Positions 26,327-39,515 are shown, numbered from the stretch's first letter. The stretch: 64,000 bases of DNA from an uncultured Actinomycetes bacterium (GCA_964640385.1 CAZXFL010000002.1:27045-91044); one strand, 5' to 3'. A program made the numbers and translations. Notes: generated by a model not told the origin, from the letters alone.

Positions 26327-26402
26327 GGAAACCCGATGTTACCCCAAGCGGGATCGCTAGCTGGGCGCCGGAACGCCGGGGGATGTGCGAGCGCCCGCCC
26401 GG

Positions 26403-26897
26403 CTATTCGCAGCTCTTGATCGTGTTATTTCCGGGACCGCCCTTGCACGTGTCGTTGCCCTTCCCGCCGACGAGCGTGTCGTTCCCGTCCTTGCCGAGCA
26501 GCTTGTCGTTCGCGTTGCCACCCTTGATGGTGTCGTTGCCATCCTGGCCGATGACCTGGTCTCGCCCACGTCCGGCGATGAGCGTCTCATCGCCGGAGTC
26601 GCCGGTGATCGTCGTCGTTCCCGTGAACGCGGACGCGTTCACCATTCCATCCGAAACCGCAGCCAGCGATCCCTTCTCGATGCCGGAAAGCGCGTCGATC
26701 TCGGTTGCTCCTTCGATGGACGTGTCGGTGAGGATGATCGGGTTGTCCTTCGCGACGACGGTGTCAGTGCCGCCGCCGCCGGCAACCGCGTCGTTGGTGG
26801 AGTCCGGCACCAGTGTGATCTCGTCGTTGCCGACGCCGGCAGAACTCACGGCGTTCAGCTCCCTCGCCGGTCGGACGATCAACGCGACGACGTTCAC
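26403..26897 (-). CDS. Calcium-binding (RTX-like GGxGxD) repeat protein fragment. Lacks a signal peptide and is probably 5'-truncated.
   Basis: GQDGNDTIKGGNANDKLLGKDGNDTLVGGKGNDTCKGGPGNNTIKSCE. Aligns to the C-terminal half of the full-length paralogue 38208..39515. Confidence 0.6.
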   Translation of the reverse strand: MNVVALIVRPARELNAVSSAGVGNDEITLVPDSTNDAVAGGGGTDTVVAKDNPIILTDTSIEGATEIDALSGIEKGSLAAVSDGMVNASAFTGTTTITGDSGDETLIAGRGRDQVIGQDGNDTIKGGNANDKLLGKDGNDTLVGGKGNDTCKGGPGNNTIKSCE

Positions 26898-27369
26898 CGG
26901 CGACTCGGTACTCAGCGGGTACAGCCAGAGCGACGTGATCCTGGGGGGCTCCGGCGACGACGTGATCTACCCGGGGTTCGGGTTCGGCAACGACACGATG
27001 GATGGGAACGGCGGGTCCGACCGGATCTACGCCTACCTGCTGGGGGACGCGACGCTCTCCGCGGCCACGCTCGTCACCAGCGACAACGGCACGGACACCT
27101 TCTCCGACATCGAGGCCGCGACGCTCGACGGGAACGCGCCGTTCCTGACGGTCGACGCCTCGACGGCGACGGTCCCGGTCGCGATCTTCGCCGGCGACGG
27201 GACGGGTACCTCCGACCTGACGGGCGGTCCCTTCGACGACCGACTTATCGGGGCCGCCAGCATGGATGTCCTGAGGGGTCTGGACGGGGATGACTTCCTG
27301 GATGGCCGCGCAGAGGTCGACGACTGCAAGGGCGGGGCCGGAATCGACACGATCAAGAACTGCGAGTAG
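26815..27369 (+). CDS. Calcium-binding repeat protein fragment, divergent from and head-to-head with the previous one. Start uncertain, no signal peptide.
   Basis: ...NATTFTGDSVLSG..ILGGSGDDVIY..GNDTMDGNGGSDRIY...LRGLDGDDFLDGRAEVDDCKGGAGIDTIKNCE. The first about 145 codons of track ORF 26383..27369 are just the antisense of the minus-strand fragment. Candidate starts are GTG 26797, GTG 26815 and TTG 26827. Confidence 0.5.
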   Translation: MISSLPTPAELTAFSSLAGRTINATTFTGDSVLSGYSQSDVILGGSGDDVIYPGFGFGNDTMDGNGGSDRIYAYLLGDATLSAATLVTSDNGTDTFSDIEAATLDGNAPFLTVDASTATVPVAIFAGDGTGTSDLTGGPFDDRLIGAASMDVLRGLDGDDFLDGRAEVDDCKGGAGIDTIKNCE

Positions 27370-27395
27370 CGGGGCGCCGAGAGGCCCTCGCTACT

Positions 27396-27426
27396 TTGCC
27401 TCCAATGGGAACGTCGGCGCTACAAT
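27396..27426 (+). promoter_or_regulatory. Possible promoter (TTGCCT-N19-TACAAT) upstream of the tRNA-Thr 5' half
   Basis: The hexamers were read directly. The spacer is long (19 nt) and there are about 65 nt to the tRNA fragment. Speculative. Confidence 0.25.
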
Positions 27427-27491
27427 CAGGGCGATCCTGACGGACGAGATTCGCCGTTTCCGCAGGTCAAGGCCGGGGTCGGGGGTCGGGG

Positions 27492-27531
27492 GCCGGGGTA
27501 GCTCAGTTGGCAGAGCAGCGGTTTCGTAAAC
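27492..27531 (+). pseudogene. 5' half of tRNA-Thr(CGU): acceptor, D-arm and anticodon stem-loop up to ...GGTTTCGTAAAC
   Basis: 40/40 nt identical to 33816-33855 of the intact gene. The downstream sequence no longer forms the anticodon stem (ACGTC instead of ACCGC). Confidence 0.8.
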
Positions 27532-27598
27532 GTCAGGGCTACCTGATGTTCCACATCTGGATTGCGTTGGCCCTGGTGCGAATCGGACTTTTGAACCT

Positions 27599-28147
27599 CT
27601 ACGGGCACCGGAGTTGCCGCAAGGCCGTCAAGTTCACACGAAGATCCGCCTCGGCCACATCTTGGAGGGTGGTGAAGTCCTCGTGGCTGACTCGTGATGC
27701 CTCTCGCCACTTGCTTCGCGTGAGTCGGTACTCGACGGCGTCCGGCGCGACTACTCGGTCCAGCTTGCGGACGCTGACGTACATGACGAGGCAGGGCTCC
27801 GCGTAGGCCACGATGCCGGTGCTAGGGCTCGTGCGACTCTCCTCCGACTCGACAGCTCCAGGTTCGAACTTCTGCGCCAGGTCGAAGTCATCGAACCCGT
27901 CGAGATCAAAGTGCTCGAAGCCGTTCTGGTGTCCACTGCATTCCATGTCGGCACTGTGCCATATTCTCTGTCGCGTGGCGTGCTTGTCCTGCAGGCGACT
28001 CAAGACGGAGATTCCCGCGAGATCGGTCGGGCACAGTTGAATCTCAGGGTGGTACTTGGGGGCCGTAGGCGGAACGAGAGGGCGATCACTGCGATTGAGG
28101 CAGCTGCCGAGGCCTACCCAAAGTATCTGACCCGCCCGATGTATCAC
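27599..28147 (-). CDS. Hypothetical protein in the AT-richer patch (weak call)
   Basis: 182-aa ORF, the longest in a region of visibly lower GC. No recognisable motifs. Competing ORFs exist on the + strand (27911..28312). Confidence 0.35.
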   Translation of the reverse strand: MIHRAGQILWVGLGSCLNRSDRPLVPPTAPKYHPEIQLCPTDLAGISVLSRLQDKHATRQRIWHSADMECSGHQNGFEHFDLDGFDDFDLAQKFEPGAVESEESRTSPSTGIVAYAEPCLVMYVSVRKLDRVVAPDAVEYRLTRSKWREASRVSHEDFTTLQDVAEADLRVNLTALRQLRCP

Positions 28148-28392
28148 GAGATGCGGGGCGGGTCTGAGTTCGAAGCCGGCCCCTACGCGGAGAGCGTCTC
28201 ATCCTACGAGCGGGTCCTGGAGCTTCCCATCGGAACGGGAGGCAGGTGGACTCATCCACGAGTACCAGGCGGTGGCTGCATGATGGATCGCCGTTTGGGC
28301 ACCCGACATTGACACCGCGTGGTTCACGATGCTGAATCGACCGGCCGGACATGCGCGCGGACATAGAGTACCGGCCGGCGCCGGTCGCTATC

Positions 28393-29031
28393 TCACGAAG
28401 CCCCGGCCCCGACGGCTGCGATCGGGGGGGGCTTTTTCCTACTCGTGATGACATCGTCGACGATCCCGTACTCTTTGGCCTGCTCGGCCGTCATGATGAA
28501 GTCGCGATCGGTGTCAGCAGAGATCTTTTCGAAGGACTGGCCCGTGTGCAGCGCCAAGAGCTCGTCGATCAGTTGCCGGTAGCGCAGGATCTCCCTCGCC
28601 TGAATCTCTATTTCGACGGCCTGGCCCTCGGCTTCGCCCTGGGGCTGGTGAATCAGCACGCGTGAGTGTGGCAGGGCGAAACGCTTGCCCTTCTGACCGG
28701 CCGCAAGCAGGACCGCGGCCGCGGAGGCGGCCTGGCCCATGACGATCGTCTCGACGTCGGGCTTGATGTACATCATCGTGTCGTAGACAGCGAACAGTGC
28801 CGGTATCGATCCGCCCGGCGAGTTGATGTAAAGGTGGATGTCCTTGTCGGGGTCTTCGCTTTCGAGATGGATGAGCTGGGCCATCGTCAGATTCGCGATT
28901 GCATCGTCGATCGGCATTCCGAGGAACACGATGCGCTCTTTTAGCAAACGCGAGTAGATGTCGAACGAACGCTCGCCACGGTTCGTCTCCTCCACGACTA
29001 CGGGAACGAGGTGATTCTGCGGGTCATTCAT
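28393..29031 (-). CDS. clpP: ATP-dependent Clp protease proteolytic subunit
   Basis: [38 protein letters not shown].... Catalytic triad contexts [11 protein letters not shown] (Ser), RVLIHQP (His) and [10 protein letters not shown] (Asp). Track ORF trimmed to the ATG at 29031. Confidence 0.9.
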
Positions 29032-29334
29032 TCTTCGTGCCCCCTGCTTCGTGTGAGGAAGGCTCGCCGACGCGGTCGTTGGTATCGCCGGTAACGACTT
29101 CGGTCCTCTCGACAAGTCGAGCGCCTTCGACCGAATGCTATCACCGGCCAGCGCACTCATTTGAGCGGTCTTGGTTAGCGCGTCGGGTGCAGAAACACGA
29201 TCGCCATCATGCTGTCCTTTCTCCGTCCGAACCACCGATTATTCGCCCCCCCCGTGTCGGCGTTCGGAGCGCGGGGTCAGGTGACGTACCGCAACGCTAC
29301 GAGCGCCTCGGTGAGGAAGGGGTGGACCAATGAT

Positions 29335-29456
29335 GGGGGACCGTCAAACGCGATTTTATGGTCTAAATCCGACTAAAACGATAGGATTTATACTGAAAAG
29401 TAACGACTTTGGGTAATTCCAGGGAGAGTCCAGGTCTCGACCAAGGAGGGTGGGCG
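29335..29456 (+). promoter_or_regulatory. Most AT-rich stretch of the window. Likely promoter/leader for the Zn-ribbon and ferredoxin genes, with an AAGGAGG RBS at 29443-29449.
   Basis: cgattttatggtctaaatccgactaaaacgataggatttatactgaaaagtaacgactttgggtaattcc. It contains a TATACT -10-like hexamer. No convincing -35. Confidence 0.3.
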
Positions 29457-29672
29457 ATGCGGGACGTGTTACGCGGAGCACTCGTCTGCAATCTCCCCCA
29501 GGCCAAGAGGACCTTTCCCCGGGGCCGCATCTGCTTGGCCAAGGGCTGCGACACCAAGCTGTCGATCTACAGCGGCTGGCAGTACTGCTGGCAGCACGAG
29601 GCCGTGCACCCGTACACGCCGCGCCGCGGGCGGAAGCGGAAGGAAGTCGCAAGAGTAGTGGGAGGCTCATGA
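29457..29672 (+). CDS. Small zinc-ribbon-like protein with a basic tail
   Basis: MRDVLRGALVCNLPQAKRTFPRGRICLAKGCDTKLSIYSGWQYCWQHE...RRGRKRKE. Pattern is C-x4-C...C-x2-H. A strong RBS lies 7 nt upstream of the ATG at 29457. Confidence 0.6.
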   Translation: MRDVLRGALVCNLPQAKRTFPRGRICLAKGCDTKLSIYSGWQYCWQHEAVHPYTPRRGRKRKEVARVVGGS

Positions 29673-29712
29673 ACCGGCCGTGCGGGGATCCGCACTCGGA
29701 GTTGTCTATGGC

Positions 29713-30039
29713 ATGACCTATGTGATCGCAGAGCCCTGCATCGACGTGAAGGACCGAGCGTGCGTCGACGAATGTCCGGTCGACTGCATCTACGAGGGTC
29801 CGCGGATGCTCTACATCAACCCCGACGAGTGCGTCGACTGCGACGCCTGCGTACCGGTCTGCCCCGTCACGGCCATCTTCTCCGAGGATGACGTGCCTGC
29901 CGAGTGGAGGCCGTTCACCGCGATCAATGAGGAGTACTTCGCCGACGGCGTTTCGGGCGTGGGCTCGGCCGGCGGGGCGGCGCAGGTCGGCCCTTCGGCG
30001 GTTGACCATCCAACGGTCGCGGCCTGGGCTGCCGTCTAG
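29713..30039 (+). CDS. fdxA: 7Fe-type ferredoxin ([3Fe-4S][4Fe-4S])
   Basis: MTYVIAEPCIDVKDRACVDECPVDCIYEG...YINPDECVDCDACVPVCPVTAIF. Confidence 0.9.
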   Translation: MTYVIAEPCIDVKDRACVDECPVDCIYEGPRMLYINPDECVDCDACVPVCPVTAIFSEDDVPAEWRPFTAINEEYFADGVSGVGSAGGAAQVGPSAVDHPTVAAWAAV

Positions 30040-30148
30040 CTGTCGTCCCGACGGACATCTATGACGACTGGGCATGGCGGTCTCCAGTATCCACGACATC
30101 GCTCGCGCCCGCGGCGGCAACGCCGACTGACTGCCGGCTGAGACGGCC

Positions 30149-30757
30149 ATGCCCGCAGGCACGTATACCGTGTTCGGCCTCGATGGGCGCCCAGTCGGGA
30201 CAGAGGAGTTCCGGACGGCCCCCGGGATCGCAGGCTCGCGATGGTTCTCGACGATCCGGTTCAGCGATCCAGCGGCCGGAGAGGAGGTCGTGGATCTGTC
30301 GGTGGACGAGTACTGGCGACCCATGCGTCTGCGGATCGGAACGGGCGAACACCACCTGATCCTTCAGCGGTCCGGTCAGGGTTTCTCTGGCGCGCGCGAT
30401 GCCGAGGAGCTGGAGGTAGGCCCCGTCGCCGACTTCGGCTACCGGTCCCCCGGATTCAATGCCGCCACCGCCAACCGCCTGATGACCGAGAACCTGACGA
30501 GCGCCGATCTGGAGATCACCCGGGTCGAGGCGGGATCGCTCGGGCTGCGGACCTCGCGCCAACGCTACGAGCGTCTCGGCGACGAAGAACTCACCACGCG
30601 CGTGGGCCGGTTCCCTGCCGTGCGCTGGCGGTACACGGACCTTGACTCGGAGCGGACCGGCGAACTCTGGACCGGCGGGGCGATCGTCCTCTCCTACCCA
30701 GGAGTGGCGGAACTGGCCGAATTCGACCCGTTGGGCGCGGGCCCGTTCCCCCTCTGA
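30149..30757 (+). CDS. Hypothetical protein (202 aa)
   Basis: Clean ORF with protein-like composition. No motif recognised. Confidence 0.65.
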   Translation: MPAGTYTVFGLDGRPVGTEEFRTAPGIAGSRWFSTIRFSDPAAGEEVVDLSVDEYWRPMRLRIGTGEHHLILQRSGQGFSGARDAEELEVGPVADFGYRSPGFNAATANRLMTENLTSADLEITRVEAGSLGLRTSRQRYERLGDEELTTRVGRFPAVRWRYTDLDSERTGELWTGGAIVLSYPGVAELAEFDPLGAGPFPL

Positions 30758-30863
30758 CTTGTCGGGATCGGCGCATCTTTATCAGGACCATGACCGATGC
30801 AGTCAGGACTGATCAGTGGAGACTTCCGAACTATGAAGGAGCGAACACCAGGCGCGTAGCGGC

Positions 30864-32237
30864 TCAGCGCGGCAGGCGGTATACGAACGCGATCCGGAGC
30901 ACCAGCGTCAGGATCGACGTCGCGGCGACCGCGGCCAGCGCTGCGAGCGGCAAGCCAGCGATCGAGAGGATCGTCACAAGCAGTATGCGGCCGTCGCGTC
31001 CGCCTAGCAGCCAGGAGAGCGCGCGCTCGTCCGCATGCGGCAGGCCGTGCGCGATGATGCGGTCCTTCGAGGCCATCGACATCATCGAGCCGAACACCGC
31101 CGCAAGAGTGGCCAGCAGAACGCTCGGCGCCGCGGACGGCATCGCGTCGAGCGCCCAGAGGCCGAGACCGCCGAGGATCGCCGCGTCGGTGAATCGATCC
31201 AGAACACCGTCCAGAAGCGCCCCCTGAGGTGTCGCGCGCAGCTGCAGTCGCGCGGCCTCGCCGTCCATCCCGTCCAGCACCGAAGTGACGTGCGCCAGGA
31301 TGCCGCCCACGATGCCCAGACCGGCGGCGAGCGATCCCGCCGCCACGAGTCCGAGCAGGAACGCGATCCACGACAATAGGTTCGGCGACAGGCGAGCCGG
31401 TGAGATCCAGAACGAAAACCGTGTCGACACCGGCCGATTGAGGAAGCGCGAGACGGGCCCGTCTTCATCCTTTGGGAGCGACGAGCGCAGGAGGCGCCGC
31501 GCTTCGACGAGGTCCTCCCGTGTGTCGATGTCGTGCCACCAGGTCCCACTCGGCAGCGGCAGCGCCCGCAGCGGCCGCCGTTCTGCGAACCGTGTTACTG
31601 CTCCGGCCAGCGTGGTGTCGCCGTCGAGTGCCGCGAGCCGCTGGCATTCGAATATCTCCGGTGACAACACGAACACGCCACAATCGACGGCCGGCTCGTT
31701 CAGCTGCTTGCCGAACGCGACCGCGTCACCGTCCTCGATGCGTACGCGCGTCCCCTCTGCACGTACACCGGTCGCCGGATCCGGATCGACGAGCACCGCA
31801 GGCTCGTCGCTCCGGAGCAACCCTCGCAGCGCACCGTCACTGAAAACGTGGTCCGCCATCATGACGACCAACAACACCTCGTGCTCGAAGTGCTGCGCAA
31901 CCGCGGCGAGGGACGCCCCGTTCCCCCGTTCCCAGTCTTCGGCAAGCACAGTTCTCACGCGCCCCGGGGCAAGGCCGCCGACAGCGGCCGCAACTGGACC
32001 GGCGTGATAGCCGACGACCACGAGCACTTCCTCGATCCCCGAACCCAGCAGCGTGCGGACCGCGCGCTCGACGAGGCTGATCCCCGCGAGCCGGTTGAGC
32101 GCCTTCGAGCCACCACCGGTCACCCCTGCAAGGCGTTCGGAACGCCCGGCGGCGAGCACGACCGCGACGCGTGCTCGGGCTGCGAGTGCAGCCTCAGGCC
32201 GTGCACCTCTGGGCGCTTGCCCCTGGTCGATCCGCAT
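30864..32237 (-). CDS. Bifunctional nucleotidyltransferase / CDP-alcohol phosphatidyltransferase (IPCT/DIPPS-like architecture)
   Basis: N-terminus: VAVVLAAGRSERL...SKALNRLAG (sugar/inositol-phosphate cytidylyltransferase fold). C-terminus is membrane-embedded with DGMDGEAARLQLRATPQGALLDGVLDRFTD, matching D-x2-D-G-x2-A-R-x8-G-x3-D-x3-D. Confidence 0.75.
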   Translation of the reverse strand: MRIDQGQAPRGARPEAALAARARVAVVLAAGRSERLAGVTGGGSKALNRLAGISLVERAVRTLLGSGIEEVLVVVGYHAGPVAAAVGGLAPGRVRTVLAEDWERGNGASLAAVAQHFEHEVLLVVMMADHVFSDGALRGLLRSDEPAVLVDPDPATGVRAEGTRVRIEDGDAVAFGKQLNEPAVDCGVFVLSPEIFECQRLAALDGDTTLAGAVTRFAERRPLRALPLPSGTWWHDIDTREDLVEARRLLRSSLPKDEDGPVSRFLNRPVSTRFSFWISPARLSPNLLSWIAFLLGLVAAGSLAAGLGIVGGILAHVTSVLDGMDGEAARLQLRATPQGALLDGVLDRFTDAAILGGLGLWALDAMPSAAPSVLLATLAAVFGSMMSMASKDRIIAHGLPHADERALSWLLGGRDGRILLVTILSIAGLPLAALAAVAATSILTLVLRIAFVYRLPR

Positions 32238-32547
32238 GCGTTCCCCTCTCGAAGCTGGCTCCCGCGTTGGCGTGCTCAGTCTGTGGCCCCGGCCCCGTAT
32301 CGGGGTGCGCGATCTCCGGAATCTAGCTGATGTGAGTGTCGACTCGGTCTTGTCAAGCGGTGGTCGAATCAGGCGACGTCCGAGACCACGAGTTCCTCCT
32401 CCTCCCTAACGAGGCGAGCCTACCCCCTCAGCGCGTTTTCCCTGGCACGCAGGCCGGCGATCGCGGCCACGGGGTCGCGAGTTCCCGTATGCGATCTGAG
32501 TACCGCCCGGAGACCAAGTGGGTTCTTCCTGAACACCGTCCACTGGC

Positions 32548-32898
32548 GTGAGGTCCTGCGGGCTCGTCCCAGCGGCCGACTCGGTGGCTTCGCCCGACTC
32601 TTGCTACGGTGGCGACGTGATCGAGTTCACGGCCTGGGCTAAGGAGATCTTGCGCAACTCGCAGGTAGCGGCCTCGCGCGTCAACGCCGCGGCACGGCTG
32701 CGTCTCGCACGGACGGCCAGAGGTGTCGAAGTCGTACTCGCCTACCAACCCGACCCGGCCGACGCGACCGCCGACGCGGGCGGCGTCACCGTATACGTAG
32801 AGTCCGGGCTCGAGGGCCTCGTCGACGTCGAAGAACCTCACGACCGGCTCGTTCTCAAGCCTGCCGACGCGCCGCCCAACGTTCGCGGCGAACACTGA
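32548..32898 (+). CDS. Hypothetical protein, possibly HesB/IscA-like fold without Cys ligands. Start uncertain (GTG 32617 possible).
   Basis: VIEFTAWAKEILRNS...ARLRLART..GVEVVLAYQPDPADATADAGGVTVYVESGLEGL resembles the IscA/HesB topology but has no Cys motif. An equally long antisense ORF exists. Confidence 0.4.
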   Translation: MRSCGLVPAADSVASPDSCYGGDVIEFTAWAKEILRNSQVAASRVNAAARLRLARTARGVEVVLAYQPDPADATADAGGVTVYVESGLEGLVDVEEPHDRLVLKPADAPPNVRGEH

Positions 32899-33039
32899 GG
32901 TCGGAATGCCTTGCCCATGCGGGCGACATTACTCATAAGAGGTGGACTCGCCGCATCGGCGGCGCTTCGCTTGCTCTGCTCAAGTGAGGGACTAGGGGAG
33001 ACAGTGGCTGACGATGAGGGACTAGGCGAGCTGCTGAAG

Positions 33040-33190
33040 GTGCCCCTGCCCAACCCGAACGACGAGGACGTCGTCGCCGTGGCTCGGCGCAAGGATGCCC
33101 CGATGGCTCAGATCGCCAAGGACTTCAGGATCTCCCAGCCTTGTCTTCACCGCTGGGTCAAGGCCCAGGTCGAGGCGTCGGCCAAGCCCT
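33040..33190 (+). pseudogene. Remnant of an IS3-family transposase OrfA (HTH_Tnp_1 region only)
   Basis: ...DEDVVAVARRKDAPMAQIAKDFRISQPCLHRWVKAQVEA matches the typical IS3 OrfA motif (...VARELGIS.S.L..WV...). No OrfB/DDE part or inverted repeats were seen. Confidence 0.5.
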
Positions 33191-33221
33191 CTCGGTGCTG
33201 GAGCGGTGCTGCAGGCAGCGC

Positions 33222-33647
33222 TCAGGGCTGAGTGAAGTCCCGGATGAGCGCGGCCGCTTCTGGGAAGCCGTCCGCCAGGACCTCCGGATCGCCCCGTACC
33301 ACATCCGAGGGATCCACCCCCGGCCACTCCGTGCTCGCCCCGAGGAACCATCGGCCGCCGGCGATGAGGCGAGCGGTGTGGAAGGTTCCTCCCGGGATGA
33401 GCAGCTGCAGGCGGTGTCCGCCTCGCACGTCAGGGCCCAGGGTCTCCACGGCGTGGCGCCCGTCCGGATACAGCAGTAGGACCTCCAGGGGATCACCCAG
33501 GTAGCGGTGGTACAGCTGATCGTTCCGGATGCAATGCAGCCGAACTCCGGCCGAGGGTGTGACCTCGAAGTACAGGGCCGAACCTGCTGGGCGACCCTCG
33601 GCGAATGGTGCCGGCAACCCACCCGGGGCGATCACCTCTCCGCTCAC
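33222..33647 (-). CDS. Cupin-superfamily protein (DUF985-like). Homology continues upstream to 33746 without a canonical start.
   Basis: ...YFEVTPSAGVRLHCIRNDQLYHRYLGDPLEVLLLYPDG...LLIPGGTFHTARL. The upstream in-frame sequence DSGIEAEDVTAEEIQAELGLEPHPTCGFVRITF lies directly after a TAG and contains no ATG, GTG or TTG. Confidence 0.75.
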   Translation of the reverse strand: MSGEVIAPGGLPAPFAEGRPAGSALYFEVTPSAGVRLHCIRNDQLYHRYLGDPLEVLLLYPDGRHAVETLGPDVRGGHRLQLLIPGGTFHTARLIAGGRWFLGASTEWPGVDPSDVVRGDPEVLADGFPEAAALIRDFTQP

Positions 33648-33800
33648 GAAAGTGATGCGAACGAACCCGCACGTCGGGTGTGGCTCCAGACCGAGCTCGG
33701 CCTGAATCTCCTCCGCGGTGACGTCTTCGGCTTCGATACCGGAATCCTAGAGACATACGGACACTGTGTGAAGACCGGGCATCTCCCCGCTCCTGCTGGC

Positions 33801-33806
33801 TAGACT
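33801..33806 (+). promoter_or_regulatory. Candidate -10 element (TAGACT) 9 nt upstream of the intact tRNA-Thr
   Basis: Matches the actinobacterial TAnnnT -10 pattern. No clear -35. Confidence 0.3.
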
Positions 33807-33815
33807 GGAAAGCAC

Positions 33816-33891
33816 GCCGGGGTAGCTCAGTTGGCAGAGCAGCGGTTTCGTAAACCGCAGGTCGTCGGTTCGAGTCCGACCTCCGGCTCCA
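33816..33891 (+). tRNA. tRNA-Thr (anticodon CGU), with encoded CCA
   Basis: GCCGGGG/CTCCGGC acceptor stem (one G-U pair), D-arm GTAGCTCAGTTGGCAGAGC, anticodon stem GCGGT/ACCGC with loop TTCGTAA, T-arm GTCGGTTCGAGTCCGAC, discriminator T, then CCA. Confidence 0.95.
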
Positions 33892-33899
33892 CGTTTAGA

Positions 33900-33933
33900 T
33901 ACAAGGGCCTTGTACTACAAGGGCATTGTGGTA
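33900..33933. promoter_or_regulatory. Two adjacent copies of a TACAAGGGC-containing palindromic motif (candidate operator or recombination arm site)
   Basis: 33900-33914 TACAAGG-G-CCTTGTA is a perfect 7-bp inverted repeat. 33916-33933 TACAAGGGCATTGTGGTA is an imperfect second copy. AT-richer than the surroundings and overlaps the start of the ATPase gene. Confidence 0.4.
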
Positions 33934-35338
33934 TAGTGCCTGTGTGAGAACCCCTGAGAGTACCCGCGTGCTCGACCGAGAGGACGAGACGGCGAGGCTT
34001 GACGCCTCGTGGGCGCAGGCGGAGATCGGTGCACCCCAGCTCGCGCTGGTGTGGGGACGGCGGCGGGTTGGAAAGACGTTCCTCTTGTCGCATTTCGCCT
34101 CCACGCGCCGGGCCGTGTTCTTTGGAGCAACTGAACAGGCTGAGGAGGTGGAGCTCGCACGCCTTGCGGATGTGTGTCACCGGTCCCTGGGACAGAAGGC
34201 GATGGATCTGGCCGGAGGTGGTTTCTCCGGATGGGAAGCGGCGCTGAGGTTCTTCGTCGCCCAAGCCGAGCATGATCCCCTGCTCGTCGTCATCGACGAG
34301 GTCCCCTACCTCGCGCGGTCGACGAGGGGCTTCGCGAGCATCGTGCAAGCCGTCTGGGATCACATCCCTCCCGGCACGAGACTGATGCTCGTCCTCACCG
34401 GCTCCGCGGTCGGCATCGTCGAGGACATGGTCGGTGCGAGCGGCGCGCTCCGGGGACGCCCGACGCTGTCCCTGCGCCTCGACCCCGTGGAGCTCGTGGC
34501 CGGGCGCGTCTTCCTCCCGGAGCTCGACGCGGCTACCTATTTCCGGGCCTATGCCGCCTGCGGCGGGTACCCACTCCATCTCAATGCGTGGGATGAGGAA
34601 GCCGGCGTCGACGACAACCTGCTCGCCTTGGCCGGCTCATCCGGAGGGATCCTGCTCGAGGATGCGGCAGCCATCATGGGGGAGGAGCTGCCTTCCACCG
34701 GAGGCTACGCGCGGATCCTTGCTGCCATCGGTCGGGGCAAGACACGCGCGTCTGAGATTGAGCAGGAGGCCGGACAGCGCATCGAGCATCCGATGCACGT
34801 TCTCGTCAGGGCTGGGTTCGTTCGCAAGGAACTGCCCGTGGGCGCGCCGAAAGCGAGCCGTCCCCTGTATGCGATCGCGGATCCGTACCTGGCCTTCTGG
34901 TTCCGCGTCCTCTATTCCGACCTTGCGCAGATATCCGGCGGACAGGGTCGCGCAGTGCTGGAGCGCCGTCGTGAGGAGTGGCAGAAGCACTTGGGTTGGG
35001 TGTTCGAGGAAGCGGCTCGGTGGCACGCAACTCGTCTCGTCGCCTCTGGCGTCTTCCCGCCGGATCTGGTGGTCGGGCGCTGGTGGGCGACGTCGGGCGA
35101 GCCGTGCGAGGTTGACGTACTCGGGCTCCGTGGATCCAGAACGGCGCTCGTCGGCGAGGCGAAGTGGTCGGCCCGCCCCCTGGGATCGCCGGTTCTGCGG
35201 GGTCTCCAAGCGAAGATCGACAGGCTTCCGAAGCCGGGACCCGAAGTGACGTTGGCGATGTGGGGTCGGAACGGGATCGATGGCCGACTTCGAGATCAGG
35301 GCGTGCTGGGATACTCACTCGAAGACGTGGTTTCGTAA
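33926..35338 (+). CDS. AAA-type ATPase (archaeal-ATPase-like P-loop) with a C-terminal DUF234-like domain
   Basis: Walker A LVWGRRRVGKTFLL, Walker B LLVVIDEVPYL, and a C-terminal ...VDVLGLRGSRTALVGEAKWS nuclease-fold-like motif typical of DUF234. The stop codon lies inside the tRNA 3' repeat. Start is TTG 33926 or GTG 33944. Confidence 0.85.
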   Translation: MWYSACVRTPESTRVLDREDETARLDASWAQAEIGAPQLALVWGRRRVGKTFLLSHFASTRRAVFFGATEQAEEVELARLADVCHRSLGQKAMDLAGGGFSGWEAALRFFVAQAEHDPLLVVIDEVPYLARSTRGFASIVQAVWDHIPPGTRLMLVLTGSAVGIVEDMVGASGALRGRPTLSLRLDPVELVAGRVFLPELDAATYFRAYAACGGYPLHLNAWDEEAGVDDNLLALAGSSGGILLEDAAAIMGEELPSTGGYARILAAIGRGKTRASEIEQEAGQRIEHPMHVLVRAGFVRKELPVGAPKASRPLYAIADPYLAFWFRVLYSDLAQISGGQGRAVLERRREEWQKHLGWVFEEAARWHATRLVASGVFPPDLVVGRWWATSGEPCEVDVLGLRGSRTALVGEAKWSARPLGSPVLRGLQAKIDRLPKPGPEVTLAMWGRNGIDGRLRDQGVLGYSLEDVVS

Positions 35339-35374
35339 ACCGCAGGTCGTCGGTTCGAGTCCGACCTCCAGCTC
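35329..35374 (+). pseudogene. 3' part of tRNA-Thr(CGU): anticodon loop through the acceptor 3' strand (att-like direct repeat)
   Basis: GGTTTCGTAAACCGCAGGTCGTCGGTTCGAGTCCGACCTCCaGCTC is identical to 33844-33887 of the intact gene, except for G->A at 35370. The CCA end has diverged. Confidence 0.8.
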
Positions 35375-35479
35375 AAGCCCGGTCAGATGCCTCATTGACC
35401 TGCGGCAGGAAGGACGAGGAGAATGGGCCCTCGATGGGTCGTGGAGAGTTGACCCTGCGCCGGAAGGACCCCAGGCCTG

Positions 35480-37603
35480 ATGGAGACCGACGGAGCACGA
35501 CTTGGCCGCCGTGCGAGTCGACCGGCGGGGATCCTCGCGGCGGCGCTCCTCGCGGTGGTGCTCGTTCCGTCACAGGTGTCCGCCGCCACAGAGGATCGCG
35601 TGCCCCGCGCGAATGAAGGGCTGCGCTCGACTCAGATCTCCGTGGGCTACGACCACACCTGCGCGCTCACGCCAGCGGGCGCCGCCGACTGCTGGGGGAA
35701 CGATAGCAACGGCAAGGCGACCGACCAGGCGGGTCCGTACACACAGATCTCTGCGGGCAACGACCACACCTGTGCGCTCACGCCCGCAGGCGCCGCCGAC
35801 TGCTGGGGGAACAACGGCAGCGGCCAGGCGACGGACCAGGCCGGGCCGTACACGCAGATCTCCGCGGGAGGCGACCACGCCTGCGCGCTTATGCCCAGCG
35901 GGGCTGCCGACTGCTGGGGGAACAACGGCAGCGGCGAGGCGACCGACCAGGCGGGCCCGTACACGCAGATCTCCGCAGGAGGCGACCACACCTGCGCACT
36001 TATGCCCAGCGGAGCTGCCGACTGCTGGGGGAACGACGTCGCGGGCGAGGGGACCGACCAGGCGGGTCCGTACATACAGATCTCCGCAGGCAACTCACAC
36101 AACTGCGCGCTCACCCCCACGGGGGCCGCTGACTGCTGGGGGAACAACGTCTTGGGTCAAGCGACCGATCAGGCGGGCCCGTACACCCAGGTCTCTGCCG
36201 GGAGCGCCCACACCTGTGCGCTTATGCTCAGCGGGGCTGCCGACTGCTGGGGGAACAACGGCGAGGGCGAATCAACCGACCAGACGGGCCCCTTCACCCA
36301 GATCTCCGCGGGTGGTCGCCACACCTGCAGTCTTACTCCCGCGGGGGCCGCCGACTGCTGGGGGTGGAACGCATGGGGCCAGTCGACCGACAAGCTGGGG
36401 CCGTACGGAAGTCTGGCGATCTCTACCGGCAGCGAACACACTTGCGCGCTTACACAGGCGGGCGCTGCGGACTGCTGGGGGTCCAACAGCAACGGCCAGG
36501 CCGCTGATCAGGCTGGGCCCTACTCGCAGATCTCCGCGGGCTGGCGGCACACGTGCGCACTCACCCCCTCGGGAGCCGGTGACTGCTGGGGGTCGAACTC
36601 CGATGGCCAAGCGGTTAACCAGATCGGCCCGTATGCTCAGATCTCGGCGGGCGTTGTGCACACCTGCGCACTAACAGCGGTGGGGGCCGCGGACTGCTGG
36701 GGGAGCAACGCGAACGGCCAGGCGACCGACCAGCCCGGCCCCTTCGCCGCGATGTCCGCCGGCGAGTACCACAACTGCGCGCTTACCGCTGCGGGCACGG
36801 CTGACTGCTGGGGATTGGACACCTACGGGCAGGCGACGGACCAGGTGGGTCCATACACGCAGATATCGGGTGGCAGCTATCACACATGCGCCCTCACTCC
36901 GGCGGGCGCCGCCGACTGCTGGGGGTTCAACGGCAACGGCGCGGCAACCGACCAAGCGGGGCCCTACGCGCAGATATCCGCAGGCGAATCCCACACCTGC
37001 GCGCTCACGCCCGCAGGAGCCGCTGACTGTTGGGGGTTGAACGGCGACGGGCAAGCGACCGATCAGGCCGGCCCGTTCACCCAGATCTCCCCGGGCGGCT
37101 CCCATACCTGCGCGCTCACGCCGGCCGGCGCCGCCGACTGCTGGGGGTCCAACACCTCCAATCAGTCCGACACCGAGACACATCAGCCCGACGGACTCAT
37201 CAAGTGTCCGGGCCAAGCCTTCACAGGCAACGGCATCTACAACGATACCGGGCAGGGCCAGAGCTGCACCGCGAAACGCAAAGCAAGGAGGTCGGAGTCC
37301 TTCCAGATGCGGTTCCAGAACGACGGTAGCGACACCGACACCTTCACGATCGAGGGCCCCGCGGCAGGAGGCAAGTTCACGGTGACGTACACGGCCGGAG
37401 CGACCAACGTGACGGCGGCCGTGACAGGCGGGACCTATCTGGTGGCCGTCGGGCCCGGTGGGCAGACGGCGCTCTCGGTCCGTATCAAGCCGAAGCCATC
37501 TGCGAAGAGGGGCAACGTTCAACAAGCGCTCGTGGATGCGACCTCGGCCCACGACCCAGGGGAGTCGGACGCGGTGAAGGCCACGGTCAAGGTCATCAAC
37601 TAA
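35480..37603 (+). CDS. Secreted RCC1-like repeat protein (14 x about 37-aa repeats) with a C-terminal QPDG/QNDGS beta-sandwich-like domain
   Basis: Signal peptide ...LLAVVLVPSQVSAA. Repeats follow the form ISAGxxHTCALTPAGAADCWGxNxxGQATDQAGPYTQ. The C-terminal 145 aa are homologous to the protein at 21934..22446. Confidence 0.9.
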   Translation: METDGARLGRRASRPAGILAAALLAVVLVPSQVSAATEDRVPRANEGLRSTQISVGYDHTCALTPAGAADCWGNDSNGKATDQAGPYTQISAGNDHTCALTPAGAADCWGNNGSGQATDQAGPYTQISAGGDHACALMPSGAADCWGNNGSGEATDQAGPYTQISAGGDHTCALMPSGAADCWGNDVAGEGTDQAGPYIQISAGNSHNCALTPTGAADCWGNNVLGQATDQAGPYTQVSAGSAHTCALMLSGAADCWGNNGEGESTDQTGPFTQISAGGRHTCSLTPAGAADCWGWNAWGQSTDKLGPYGSLAISTGSEHTCALTQAGAADCWGSNSNGQAADQAGPYSQISAGWRHTCALTPSGAGDCWGSNSDGQAVNQIGPYAQISAGVVHTCALTAVGAADCWGSNANGQATDQPGPFAAMSAGEYHNCALTAAGTADCWGLDTYGQATDQVGPYTQISGGSYHTCALTPAGAADCWGFNGNGAATDQAGPYAQISAGESHTCALTPAGAADCWGLNGDGQATDQAGPFTQISPGGSHTCALTPAGAADCWGSNTSNQSDTETHQPDGLIKCPGQAFTGNGIYNDTGQGQSCTAKRKARRSESFQMRFQNDGSDTDTFTIEGPAAGGKFTVTYTAGATNVTAAVTGGTYLVAVGPGGQTALSVRIKPKPSAKRGNVQQALVDATSAHDPGESDAVKATVKVIN
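35630..37165 (+). repeat. Coding tandem repeat, about 111-bp unit x 14 (RCC1-like repeats)
   Basis: gccgactgctggggg recurs at 111-nt spacing. One unit carries a 9-nt insertion (GSL). Confidence 0.9.
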
Positions 37604-38207: not shown

Positions 38208-39515
38208 TCAGCAGGAAACGAAGTGGTTGTTCCCCGAGCCGCCCATGCACGTGTCGTCGCCTCCGCCGCCGTTGAGGTAGTCGCCCCCTGCGTTGCCGAT
38301 GAGGGTGTCCTTCTCCTCGTCGCCGAAGATCCGGTCTCCCTTCGATCCGCCGATGAGCAGGTCCCGCCCATCGCTCCCGCGGAGGACGACCCGGCCGTTG
38401 AACGCCGATGCATCGATCTCGTCGTCGAACTGGGCTCCCCGGAGACGCGCGCGCTCGATCTGACTCAGCGTAGCGATGTCGGCGGGGCCGGTCTGGAGCT
38501 GCGTATCACTGAGGGTCCCGGTGCCGTTGATACTGCCCTTCACGACGTCCGAGCCGCCGTTGCCGTCATAGCTGGGCGTGTCGCCGAGGCTGCGGAAAGT
38601 GTCGGGGCCGCTGCCGCCGAGCAGCATGGTCGTGGGACCGAACGCGAGCAGGTTCGTTCGCTGCGTACGTGCGGTCGCGTCGCCCAGAACGGATACCGCG
38701 ACCTGAACGTTCTCGACGCTGGTGAGCGTGTCGGTTTCGGTCCCGTTCTCGACGATGGTCGTATCGGTCGCGACGACGTTCGCCACGAACTGCGACGACG
38801 TTCGGTCCGTCCCGGGCCCGCCGTCGAGCGTGTCGTTCCCGGTCCCCGGCTCGAACTGGTCGTTGCCGCCGCCGCCGCTTACGATGTCGTCTCCGGAGCC
38901 GGTATTGAGGATGTTCAGGCCGGCGCCTCCCATCACGGTGTCGCCGCCTCCCTTGGCAGCCATGTTGAAGAAGCCGGAGAAGCCGCTCCCGTCGAGGGTG
39001 TCGGGTCCGCTCGTCCCCTGCATGTTCGCGTAGTCGAATCCGCTGAGGGTGCTCAGCTCGCCTATCAGGTTCAGCGAGGTGTCGGTCAGGATCGTCGAGG
39101 TCGAATCCGGCACGTTCAGGAGATCGTTCCCCCCGTTGCCCGCGAGGGTGCCGCCGATGTAGCCGATCCCCAGGATGTCGTCACCGGGCCCCATCATGAC
39201 GTCGACGCCGGTCAATGCGGAGAAATCCGTCGTCGTGACCGAGGTCATGAGCACCAGGTCGCCGCCCGCGCCCATGTTCACCGTGATCGTGGTGATGGAG
39301 CTGCATGGCGTCGGTCCCGGGAACGGCGCCAGGCCGTTGATCAGCAGGTTGCCGCCGGAGCACGTGACGGTTGCACTGTCGTTGCCACCATCACCGGTGA
39401 TGGTTAGGTCGCCACCACTCAGTCCGAAGGTCACGGCCGCGGACGCCGCCGAAGGGATCAGGGCGAGCGAGCTGACGATGAGTGCGATGGTGCCGACGCG
39501 GGCTACGGGCTTCAT
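38208..39515 (-). CDS. Secreted calcium-binding (RTX-like) repeat protein, full-length paralogue
   Basis: Signal peptide MKPVARVGTIALIVSSLALIPSAASA. Many GGxGxD-type units. Ends GGGGDDTCMGGSGNNHFVSC. Confidence 0.85.
   Translation of the reverse strand: MKPVARVGTIALIVSSLALIPSAASAAVTFGLSGGDLTITGDGGNDSATVTCSGGNLLINGLAPFPGPTPCSSITTITVNMGAGGDLVLMTSVTTTDFSALTGVDVMMGPGDDILGIGYIGGTLAGNGGNDLLNVPDSTSTILTDTSLNLIGELSTLSGFDYANMQGTSGPDTLDGSGFSGFFNMAAKGGGDTVMGGAGLNILNTGSGDDIVSGGGGNDQFEPGTGNDTLDGGPGTDRTSSQFVANVVATDTTIVENGTETDTLTSVENVQVAVSVLGDATARTQRTNLLAFGPTTMLLGGSGPDTFRSLGDTPSYDGNGGSDVVKGSINGTGTLSDTQLQTGPADIATLSQIERARLRGAQFDDEIDASAFNGRVVLRGSDGRDLLIGGSKGDRIFGDEEKDTLIGNAGGDYLNGGGGDDTCMGGSGNNHFVSC

Follow-up and report, generated by a model that had tools for sequence, protein, structure and literature searches.

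A tRNA-Thr(CGU) gene with displaced 5' and 3' pieces and a recurrent one-gene ATPase cassette in an uncultured Actinomycetes bacterium

A single tRNA gene, tRNA-Thr(CGU), was found by ARAGORN and Rfam in a 64,000-nucleotide stretch of DNA from an uncultured Actinomycetes bacterium (GCA_964640385.1 CAZXFL010000002.1:27045-91044). This whole stretch is referred to here as the window, and positions are counted from its first letter. The gene is accompanied by two partial copies of itself, a displaced 5' fragment upstream and a displaced 3' fragment downstream, and all three pieces lie on the + strand (Table 1). Between the 5' fragment and the intact gene is a segment with several genes, and between the intact gene and the 3' fragment there is only one gene, which encodes a protein with ATPase_2 and DUF234 domains. 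Both sides of the locus are flanked by ordinary chromosomal genes. This is the arrangement of an island inserted at a tRNA gene, except that the tRNA gene has displaced pieces on both of its sides.

The borders of the pieces are sharp. Immediately after the 5' fragment two bases differ from the intact gene (GT for CG), and then CAGG (positions 43-46) matches again. On the other side, 35329-35369 corresponds to tRNA positions 29-69 with 41 of 41 nucleotides identical, as found both by a k-mer and diagonal scan of the two strands and by a repeat search. Beyond position 69 the 3' fragment has A in place of G70, then CTC, and the similarity stops at about position 74. The A70 would give a C3.A70 mispair, and CCA is not encoded. 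The core shared by the two fragments, GGTTTCGTAAAC, is made up of the 7-nt anticodon loop, with three stem bases before it and two after it. The geometry is reciprocal. Position 40 is the last of the 5' piece and position 29 the first of the 3' piece, and joined together they make a tRNA-Thr. Indeed, when 27300-27531 is joined in silico to 35341-35600, ARAGORN calls a tRNA-Thr(cgt). Exact matches of 40 and 41 nt cannot occur by chance in 64 kb. The fragments are scars of site-specific recombination centred on the anticodon loop.

An earlier reading of this DNA, made from the sequence alone, had described the 40-nt match of the 5' half, the 3' match with its one acceptor-stem mismatch, the common strand and the overlap confined to the 12-nt loop core, and it had proposed the in silico join. 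All of these claims were reproduced. The same sequence-only reading saw a promoter-like sequence, TTGCCT-N19-TACAAT, upstream of the 5' half. Its spacer is 19 nt, and a consensus scan misses it. For the regenerated tRNA, a consensus scan of the + strand from 33400 to 33815 finds no promoter either, and visual inspection reveals no more than TAGACT, of the TANNNT type, at 33801-33806. A G-rich run, GGCCGGGGTCGGGGGTCGGGGGCCGGGGT, lies just upstream of the 5' fragment (27465-27499). It contains the first 8 nt of the tRNA, GCCGGGGT, twice, 20 nt apart, and its first part (27465-27484) resembles 33156-33175 at 17 of 20 positions; in DNA of 68% GC both likenesses may be chance.

The repeated 5' half can also be recognized in an independent assembly of the same sample. 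Contig L001 of the k=31 Logan assembly SRR6155509 stops at window position 27521, which is the position expected where two different left flanks meet at a repeated 5' half. Because the stop falls at the last k-mer before that repeat, the repeat must be present in the reads as well.

Table 1. Features of the tRNA-Thr(CGU) locus, with positions in the 64-kb window.
Feature	Position	Strand	Basis
Displaced 5' fragment, tRNA positions 1-40, keeps chromosomal upstream flank	27492-27531	+	40/40 identity to 33816-33855
Core GGTTTCGTAAAC, tRNA positions 29-40	27520-27531; also 33844-33855, 35329-35340	+	only overlap between the fragments
Left inserted segment, 6.3 kb, no recombinase gene	27532-33815	.	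composition, GC3, profile scans
Unknown-function gene, 115 aa (P0121), nearest the 5' fragment	27599-27946	-	frame-plot coding signal
clpP with N-terminal extension	28393-29235	-	PF00574 E=1.6e-79; NF001368 309.6 bits
Ferredoxin gene (4Fe-4S)	29680-30039	+	Fer4 families
Glycolipid-binding-like protein gene	30149-30757	+	PF06475
IPCT/DIPPS-like bifunctional NTP-transferase / CDP-alcohol phosphatidyltransferase gene	30864-32237	-	PF12804 + PF01066
Unknown, 116 aa	32548-32898		
Helix-turn-helix (HTH)-containing open reading frame (ORF) fragment	32911-33231	+	HTH_23 E=0.002, no transposase family
Cupin_5 (DUF985) gene, last before the intact tRNA	33222-33647	-	PF06172 E=1.3e-16
Intact tRNA-Thr(CGU), regenerated, CCA encoded	33816-33891	+	ARAGORN (cgt); Rfam RF00005 68.6 bits
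Two tandem 16-bp palindromes, TACAAGGGCCTTGTAC + TACAAGGGCATTGTGG, then TATAGT; left end of cassette	33900-33931	+	
ATPase_2 + DUF234 gene, 456 aa (P0001), stop TAA = tRNA fragment positions 36-38	33968-35338	+	PF01637 + PF03008
Displaced 3' fragment, tRNA positions 29-74, keeps chromosomal downstream flank	35329-35374	+	one mismatch (A70)

The right-hand side of the locus is compact. A 46-nt direct repeat brackets the single ATPase gene, and two tandem palindromes precede it; the palindrome motif has two matches in the window, against 0.02 expected. Homologues of the ATPase number in the hundreds at 62-73% identity. The genomic contexts of eight of them were compared, and the layout described next comes from four loci, several of them on short contigs. 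The unit consisting of a tRNA, a spacer of 6-8 nt, tandem palindromes, an ATPase_2/DUF234 gene and a 3' tRNA fragment recurs on three metagenomic contigs, whose ATPases are 70-74% identical to that of the window. The most complete is L013, a 1647-bp contig of a metagenome-assembled genome (MAG) at NCBI. It has an entire tRNA-Thr(cgt), identical to the window tRNA at 75 of 76 positions, followed by 7 nt, two palindromes, an ATPase gene (70% identity) and a 3' fragment that repeats its own tRNA over 38 nt, from position 40 to one base beyond CCA. L012, a 1534-bp k-mer contig, starts in the T-arm of a tRNA, continues through palindromes and ATPase gene, and ends in a second T-arm copy, which is preceded by GGTTTCGTAA. 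In L011 the palindromes and the ATPase gene are followed by a 3' fragment whose parent sequence resembles tRNA-Thr(CGU) but differs somewhat from the others. At a distance of 2.7 kb downstream of this fragment there is a tyrosine integrase gene, a candidate helper with regard to site specificity. The first palindrome begins 6-8 nt past the 3' end of the tRNA in the window, L012 and L013.

A second common property concerns the end of the gene. At all four loci the ATPase ORF terminates at anticodon-loop positions 36-38 of the 3' fragment, with TAA in the window and in L012, TGA in L013 and TAG in L011. The C-termini of three more members of the cluster fit a stop at the same loop positions. Therefore, the gene and the attachment site constitute one evolutionary unit. 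A variant of the window ATPase that differs by one residue is found on a 1496-bp Logan contig, and this length fits 1439 unique bases plus k-mer overhangs into the repeats. Many other homologues (P0002, P0009, P0011, P0035, P0041, P0067, P0116 and others) are likewise on contigs of 1.45-1.75 kb. These contigs hardly exceed the gene in length, as is expected from k-mer assemblers when a repeat brackets a gene. Perhaps other clades also consist of repeat-flanked cassettes, at other targets; short contigs are the rule in Logan, though.

How old is the association? Four-fold degenerate sites of the ATPase genes are only 33-40% identical between the window, L013 and the L012/L011 pair, which means that they are saturated (L012 and L011 are closer to each other, with 59%). 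Despite this saturation, each 3' fragment is identical to its adjacent tRNA across 38-41 nt. The mismatches are also distributed unevenly. In L013 all three fall in positions 29-39 and none in the next 38 nt, for which the chance by our own count is about 0.009, and in L012 there are two, at positions 39-40. This is the pattern that would be left by an attR site, in which the left part would come from the element and the right part would be the host tRNA copied at insertion. However, the window, L012 and L013 do not differ in the 3' part of their tRNA, and so selection or gene conversion fits the conservation of the fragments as well as repeated re-insertion does. We infer that palindromes, ATPase gene and tRNA-like site together make up a 1.44-kb cassette that moves or did so until recently. 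It appears to travel among uncultured Actinomycetota at tRNA-Thr(CGU).

More distant homologues have a different context. L007/L008/L009, L010, L014, L015 and L016 encode ATPases with 61-67% identity and have two to four copies of the palindrome upstream of the start, and neither a tRNA nor a tRNA fragment was found beside the ATPase gene in any of them. Repeats in the flanks of L007, L010 and L014-L016 do not exceed shuffled controls, and a 12-nt direct repeat around the L007 gene was dismissed, since about 0.4 such repeats are expected by chance in 3.5 kb. The tie to tRNA-Thr(CGU) is thus confined to a single clade of the ATPase family. Because the palindromes are present at homologues that have no tRNA, they belong to the ATPase gene. 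Their consensus is TACAAGGGCCTTGTA, with a 16-nt period followed by a TAnnnT box, and they were seen 20-40 nt upstream of the start in every homologue examined (L007 5957-5987; L009 733-763; L010 5956-5986; L012 38-68; and approximately L013 98-130, L014 1640-1720, L015 8940-8990 and L016 790-840, in addition to the window). The simplest reading is an operator that overlaps the promoter, because the TAnnnT box follows the palindromes. The tandem palindromes are probably an autoregulatory operator, to which the ATPase protein may bind. Neither a tandem palindromic operator nor a fixed position at tRNA-Thr(CGU) turned up in the literature searches that touched on this ATPase family and on tRNA integration sites.

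The protein itself matches the PADLOC candidate defence family PDC-S27 (PDLC04984, E=2.9e-27, residues 2-357). A sequence search of the PDB with it gave no match. With its AlphaFold model (mean pLDDT, the predicted local distance difference test score, 75.5), Foldseek returns the Pyrococcus abyssi Walker ATPase 2qen (PABY2304) as the best hit and then ORC/Cdc6 proteins. The protein is an ORC/Cdc6-like AAA+ ATPase, with a C-terminal domain that is assigned to the PD-(D/E)XK nucleases. A published list of PD-(D/E)XK nucleases that are fused to DEXX-box AAA+ ATPases includes DUF234/COG1672 (PMC3424549). The domain architecture is that of COG1672 (ATPase_2-DUF234) and PDC-S27, and homologues in L014 and L016 are near restriction-modification and integrase genes; the one in L016 is beside restriction-modification and helicase genes. 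A defence role is a candidate function, one suggested by family membership and neighbourhood.

A tblastn search of plasmids and phages with the ATPase returned only homologues with 33% identity or less. Viral contigs were searched with the reconstructed core-only attP, the 3' part and the 5' part of the tRNA, the ATPase protein, the tRNA-plus-palindrome junction and the double palindrome, and nothing relevant was found. Alignment of the ATPase to viral contigs gave 44 loci at 23-29% identity, none with a tRNA beside the gene.

The left-hand segment is of another kind. It carries clpP, a ferredoxin gene, a glycolipid-binding-like gene, an IPCT/DIPPS-like gene (which reaches 217.5 bits with NF041135, under the cut-off of 580) and a cupin gene, among others. 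Its left end has relatives that are few and close. The small gene nearest the 5' fragment, P0121, has only two homologues among 5.8 billion proteins, P0122 and P0123, with 82-87% amino acid and 90-92% nucleotide identity. These are on contigs L017 and L018 from other samples, where clpP also adjoins the small gene and where the 5' region of clpP is 80-86% identical at the nucleotide level. The Usp-Rieske gene in the host flank, searched against the same proteins, has no homologue above 56% identity, and its named matches are Actinomycetota MAGs. That the relatives of P0121 are far closer than those of Usp-Rieske is evidence that at least the left end of the segment is foreign. Relative to the window, clpP is inverted in L017 and L018. 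On those contigs the small gene and clpP are divergent, the matching parts of the window are 27608-27996 and 28909-29173, and at the inversion breakpoint about 400 nt of the window (27997-28392) is unmatched. Another small scar of rearrangement is a 28-nt piece of the glycolipid-binding-like gene (30560-30587), which is duplicated with 89% identity at 29292-29319 (repeat D3), upstream of clpP. The left segment is a rearranged mosaic without recombination genes.

L017 and L018, neither of which contains any piece of a tRNA, part from each other about 95 nt past the small gene. At this divergence point (about 340-370 and 240-265 of the reverse complements) both read ACC(G/T)CAGGCGTCAG, which resembles tRNA positions 39-52, and the CGTCAGG in it is also present right after the 5' fragment of the window. 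As a tRNA-like remnant this point (GCAGCGG/ACCGCAGG/CGTCAGG) does not score above shuffled sequences; it may still be what is left of an attachment site. A further motif, GAATCGGACTTTTGRACC (core GGTCCRAAA, either orientation), is found once in the window, at 27579-27602 between the 5' fragment and the small gene, and in the reverse complement of L017 at about 35-60, 95-115, 155-180, 205-230 and 309-333. It may be a repeat of the repetitive extragenic palindromic (REP) or miniature inverted-repeat transposable element (MITE) kind.

The composition of the interior differs from that of the flanks, with 65-66% GC as opposed to 68%. The patch 27532-29400 is lower still (60.7%). It also includes the duplicate upstream of clpP. 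With gene sets chosen by one rule across the whole window, mean GC3 (GC content at third codon positions) is 0.786 for the 8 interior genes and 0.846 for the 45 outside genes (one-sided Mann-Whitney p=4.8e-4), and every one of the 8 interior genes is below the window mean. The shift is consistent yet modest in size, and it spans both the left segment and the ATPase gene. The search for recombinases was negative throughout. No integrase, excisionase or transposase was found in the called ORFs of 27532-35328 with Pfam, NCBIfam, PHROGs and PADLOC, and a six-frame Pfam scan of 27532-28400 and 32900-33815 revealed no integrase or excisionase remnant. When the L011 and L014 tyrosine integrases were compared by phmmer with all ORFs of at least 40 aa in the 64 kb, the best E was 0.04 and no integrase was among the matches. 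The sequence-only reading had anticipated much of this. Its AT-rich patch is real, the GC check and the remnant search that it proposed have now been run, its clpP and DUF234 ATPase are borne out by Pfam, and so is its statement that no integrase survives. What did not fare well is its IS3 OrfA remnant, for which there is an HTH_23 match with E=0.002 and nothing from any transposase family.

The layout of the tRNA pieces, the recurring cassette, the lack of any integrase and the shift in composition are observed facts. To explain them, a history can be proposed to which we give about an even chance of being correct. It is that two site-specific insertions struck the tRNA-Thr(CGU) gene separately, one from either side. 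Each crossover would have occurred within or beside the anticodon loop, and the functioning tRNA would be a regenerated copy. On the right (33892-35328), the 1.44-kb cassette would have entered in the usual polarity, carrying its palindromic operator/promoter, its candidate defence gene, which encodes an AAA+ ATPase-nuclease, and its attachment site, a mimic of the tRNA from position 29 on. It would have given the tRNA a new 3' part and displaced the old one to 35329-35374. Since the cassette has no recombinase of its own, it would depend on the tyrosine integrase of another element with the same target, acting in trans. On the left (27532-33815), 6.3 kb of foreign DNA would have entered in the rare reversed polarity. 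The displaced 5' fragment implies this polarity, in which the inserted DNA supplies the 5' part of the tRNA and the region upstream of it, so the old 5' part would have been displaced to 27492-27531. Later the left segment would have lost its recombination genes and been rearranged.

One reason for favouring two events is that the right 1.5 kb (tRNA, ATPase gene and 3' fragment) recurs independently in L012, L013 and L011. Another is the position of the exchanges. The blocks of identity start at position 41 in L012 and at position 40 in L013, which suggests that the cassette recombined 3' of position 40, whereas the left junction of the window calls for a crossover no later than position 40. 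The sequence-only reading had ranked two elements, one of them using the 5' side, level with a single insertion of about 7.8 kb. The two-element part of that pair is the one that gains from the recurring right-hand unit, and the equal ranking is no longer appropriate. Nevertheless, the number and order of the insertion events and the mobilization in trans are what we infer from these data.

Classic tRNA-targeted islands provide the obvious comparison. In these, strand exchange by a tyrosine integrase takes place at or close to the anticodon loop, and the tRNA gene is restored in the process. The locus shares with the islands catalogued by Islander (PMC4383910) an intact tRNA gene plus a cognate fragment on the same replicon and in the same orientation, junctions centred on the anticodon loop (as at 2083 Islander islands, whose sites are anticodon-centred), and an interior with foreign-looking composition. 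It differs in that an integrase is expected inside the island, whereas there is none here in either island or in the 64 kb. It differs also in that a 3'-fragment and a 5'-fragment island share one tRNA, so that the working gene may be chimeric on both sides. The 5'-fragment type is rare, with 159 of 3919 Islander islands having a displaced 5' fragment compared with 3760 that have a 3' fragment (PMC4383910). Recombination at the 5' part of a tRNA gene is described as rare but known, with several archaeal cases, by Krupovic et al. (PMC6563490, citing Zhao and Williams 2002, J Bacteriol 184:859). Like such elements, the left segment has a displaced upstream 5' fragment, it would supply a new 5' part and upstream region, and its 5' fragment ends at the presumed crossover, two bases past the anticodon loop. 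Unlike them, it has no integrase, no second copy of its attachment site was seen elsewhere, and its cargo is not element-like.

The cassette can be compared with the cis-mobilizable elements (CIMEs) known from the literature on integrative and conjugative elements (ICEs) of Streptococcus thermophilus. These are non-autonomous islands flanked by att sites, and they are usually recent deletion derivatives of a known ICE. Attachment-site repeats similarly border the cassette (in the window, in L013 and at the ends of L012), genes for recombination or transfer are absent from it, and in L011 it is in tandem with an integrase-bearing element. An integrase gene adjoins the ATPase gene in L011 and, more loosely, in L014. 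The difference is that the cassette is only 1.44 kb, has a single gene whose ORF runs into the attachment site, and is conserved across saturated lineages. Neither is it an integron gene cassette, which would be a promoterless ORF with an attC hairpin site, beside attI and an integron integrase. This identity was tried and rejected, because the unit has its own palindromic operator and -10-like box, a tRNA-derived recombination site and no integrase. A split tRNA of the Nanoarchaeum type, in which there is no intact gene and the halves have long complementary flanks that join in trans, was likewise rejected, since the intact gene is there and the stretches that follow the 5' half and precede the 3' part have no more than 5 bp of complementarity (GACGT/ACGTC).

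Could the whole region be one element after all? A circle consisting of 27532-33815, a complete tRNA-Thr and the ATPase cassette might have recombined with the tRNA gene of the chromosome at an attachment site limited to the core (…GAAGACGT-GGTTTCGTAAAC-GTCAGGG…), splitting the host gene without repair, with the imported tRNA compensating for the loss. Such a circle could have been released from a donor by aberrant excision between the right site of the cassette and some secondary site located upstream, so that adjoining genes of the chromosome were carried along. This composite 7.8-kb element has some attractions. The outer junctions are exactly B-O-P' and P-O-B', as in a single exchange with a 12-nt core, the left cargo looks like captured donor chromosomal genes and not like element genes, and GC3 is similar in the left segment and in the cassette (0.74-0.82). 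The core of the reconstructed site is surrounded by a 5-bp inverted repeat, GACGT…ACGTC, which could be chance, and its right arm, ACGTCAGG, resembles ACCGCAGG of the tRNA. However, the cassette occurs elsewhere on its own, together with a regenerated tRNA and a 3' fragment, and the blocks in L012 and L013, which start at positions 41 and 40, do not seem to fit a left junction at 40 or less; if so, two different exchanges took place. Moreover, a non-restoring insertion into an essential single-copy tRNA gene would be unusual, and the circular junction was not found in viral contigs. We regard this history as unlikely, and the region is probably not one 7.8-kb element. A less probable alternative still is that the left side is the product of a chromosomal rearrangement. 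Here native DNA (roughly 29400-33815) would have been moved beside the tRNA, either through an integrase that used the tRNA together with a secondary site or through some other recombination event, and only 27532-29400 would be foreign. The near-host GC of 29400-33000 (67.3%) would be explained, and the inverted clpP, the 28-nt duplicate and an HTH fragment that is possibly derived from an insertion sequence are signs of rearrangement. Yet a simple inversion does not yield direct orientation of all pieces with a 5' half that ends at the loop, all five genes in 29680-33647 have GC3 below the window mean, and no second tRNA-Thr copy or partner site was seen in the window. This makes a rearrangement rather improbable.

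Two further explanations deserve much less weight. The cassette might be autonomous, with the ORC-like ATPase/PD-(D/E)XK nuclease binding the palindromes and catalysing or directing insertion at tRNA-Thr(CGU) without a tyrosine integrase. This is a long shot, albeit one that would explain a one-gene unit that has intact ends and persists across lineages saturated at synonymous sites. An assembly artefact is even more remote. The window does come from a metagenome assembly, in which tRNA genes are common points of chimeric joining, but contigs wrongly joined at a tRNA that they share would leave this tRNA intact and would not produce reciprocal halves that meet at the anticodon loop. Furthermore, the k=31 assembly breaks at 27521, exactly where the repeats predict, the 1496-bp contig with the one-residue ATPase variant has the length of the unique bases plus overhangs, and the same cassette architecture is present in three unrelated assemblies.

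Several observations weigh against two separate insertions and should be kept in mind. In particular, the two-event and one-event histories predict the identical final sequence. Without an integrase, nothing shows which recombinase acted. The left segment has no gene typical of a mobile element, its clpP, ferredoxin, IPCT/DIPPS-like and cupin genes look chromosomal, and from 29400 on its GC is near the host value, as noted for the rearrangement. L017 and L018 have no tRNA 5' half, and so there is no second example of a 5'-type attachment site. The argument from host divergence compares a single flank gene, Usp-Rieske. Finally, no empty or half-occupied site was found in genome and metagenome contigs, where loci matching the Usp-Rieske flank reach at most 44% identity. 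This last result can be attributed to the host having no close relatives in the collections searched.

The wider neighbourhood has a character of its own. The downstream gene at 35480-37603 encodes RCC1_2 repeats (E=3e-115) and has at least five tandem 111-nt DNA repeats with 64-87% identity at 35519-36262, which are the units of the beta-propeller still visible at the DNA level. Genes for RTX calcium-binding repeat proteins lie to the left and to the right of the locus (26383-27369 and 38208-39515). Together, the RTX, RCC1-repeat and PD40 beta-propeller proteins suggest a neighbourhood rich in secreted or surface repeat proteins.

The mechanism, and tRNA-targeted islands themselves, are textbook. 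What deserves notice is the occupancy of a tRNA-Thr(CGU) gene on both sides and the recurrence there of a minimal candidate defence cassette. One tRNA gene is occupied on both of its sides, and its working copy may be assembled from two imported pieces; occupancy of this two-sided kind is filtered out by island finders that demand an integrase. The cassette is a minimal and recurrent unit of one gene, which encodes a candidate defence ATPase-nuclease. An operator of its own precedes this gene, and an attachment site that mimics the tRNA is fused to its stop codon. The unit would provide a handle on the PDC-S27/COG1672 candidate family. If it is mobilized in trans, it would be a compact natural case of defence genes that hitch-hike on the integrases of other elements.

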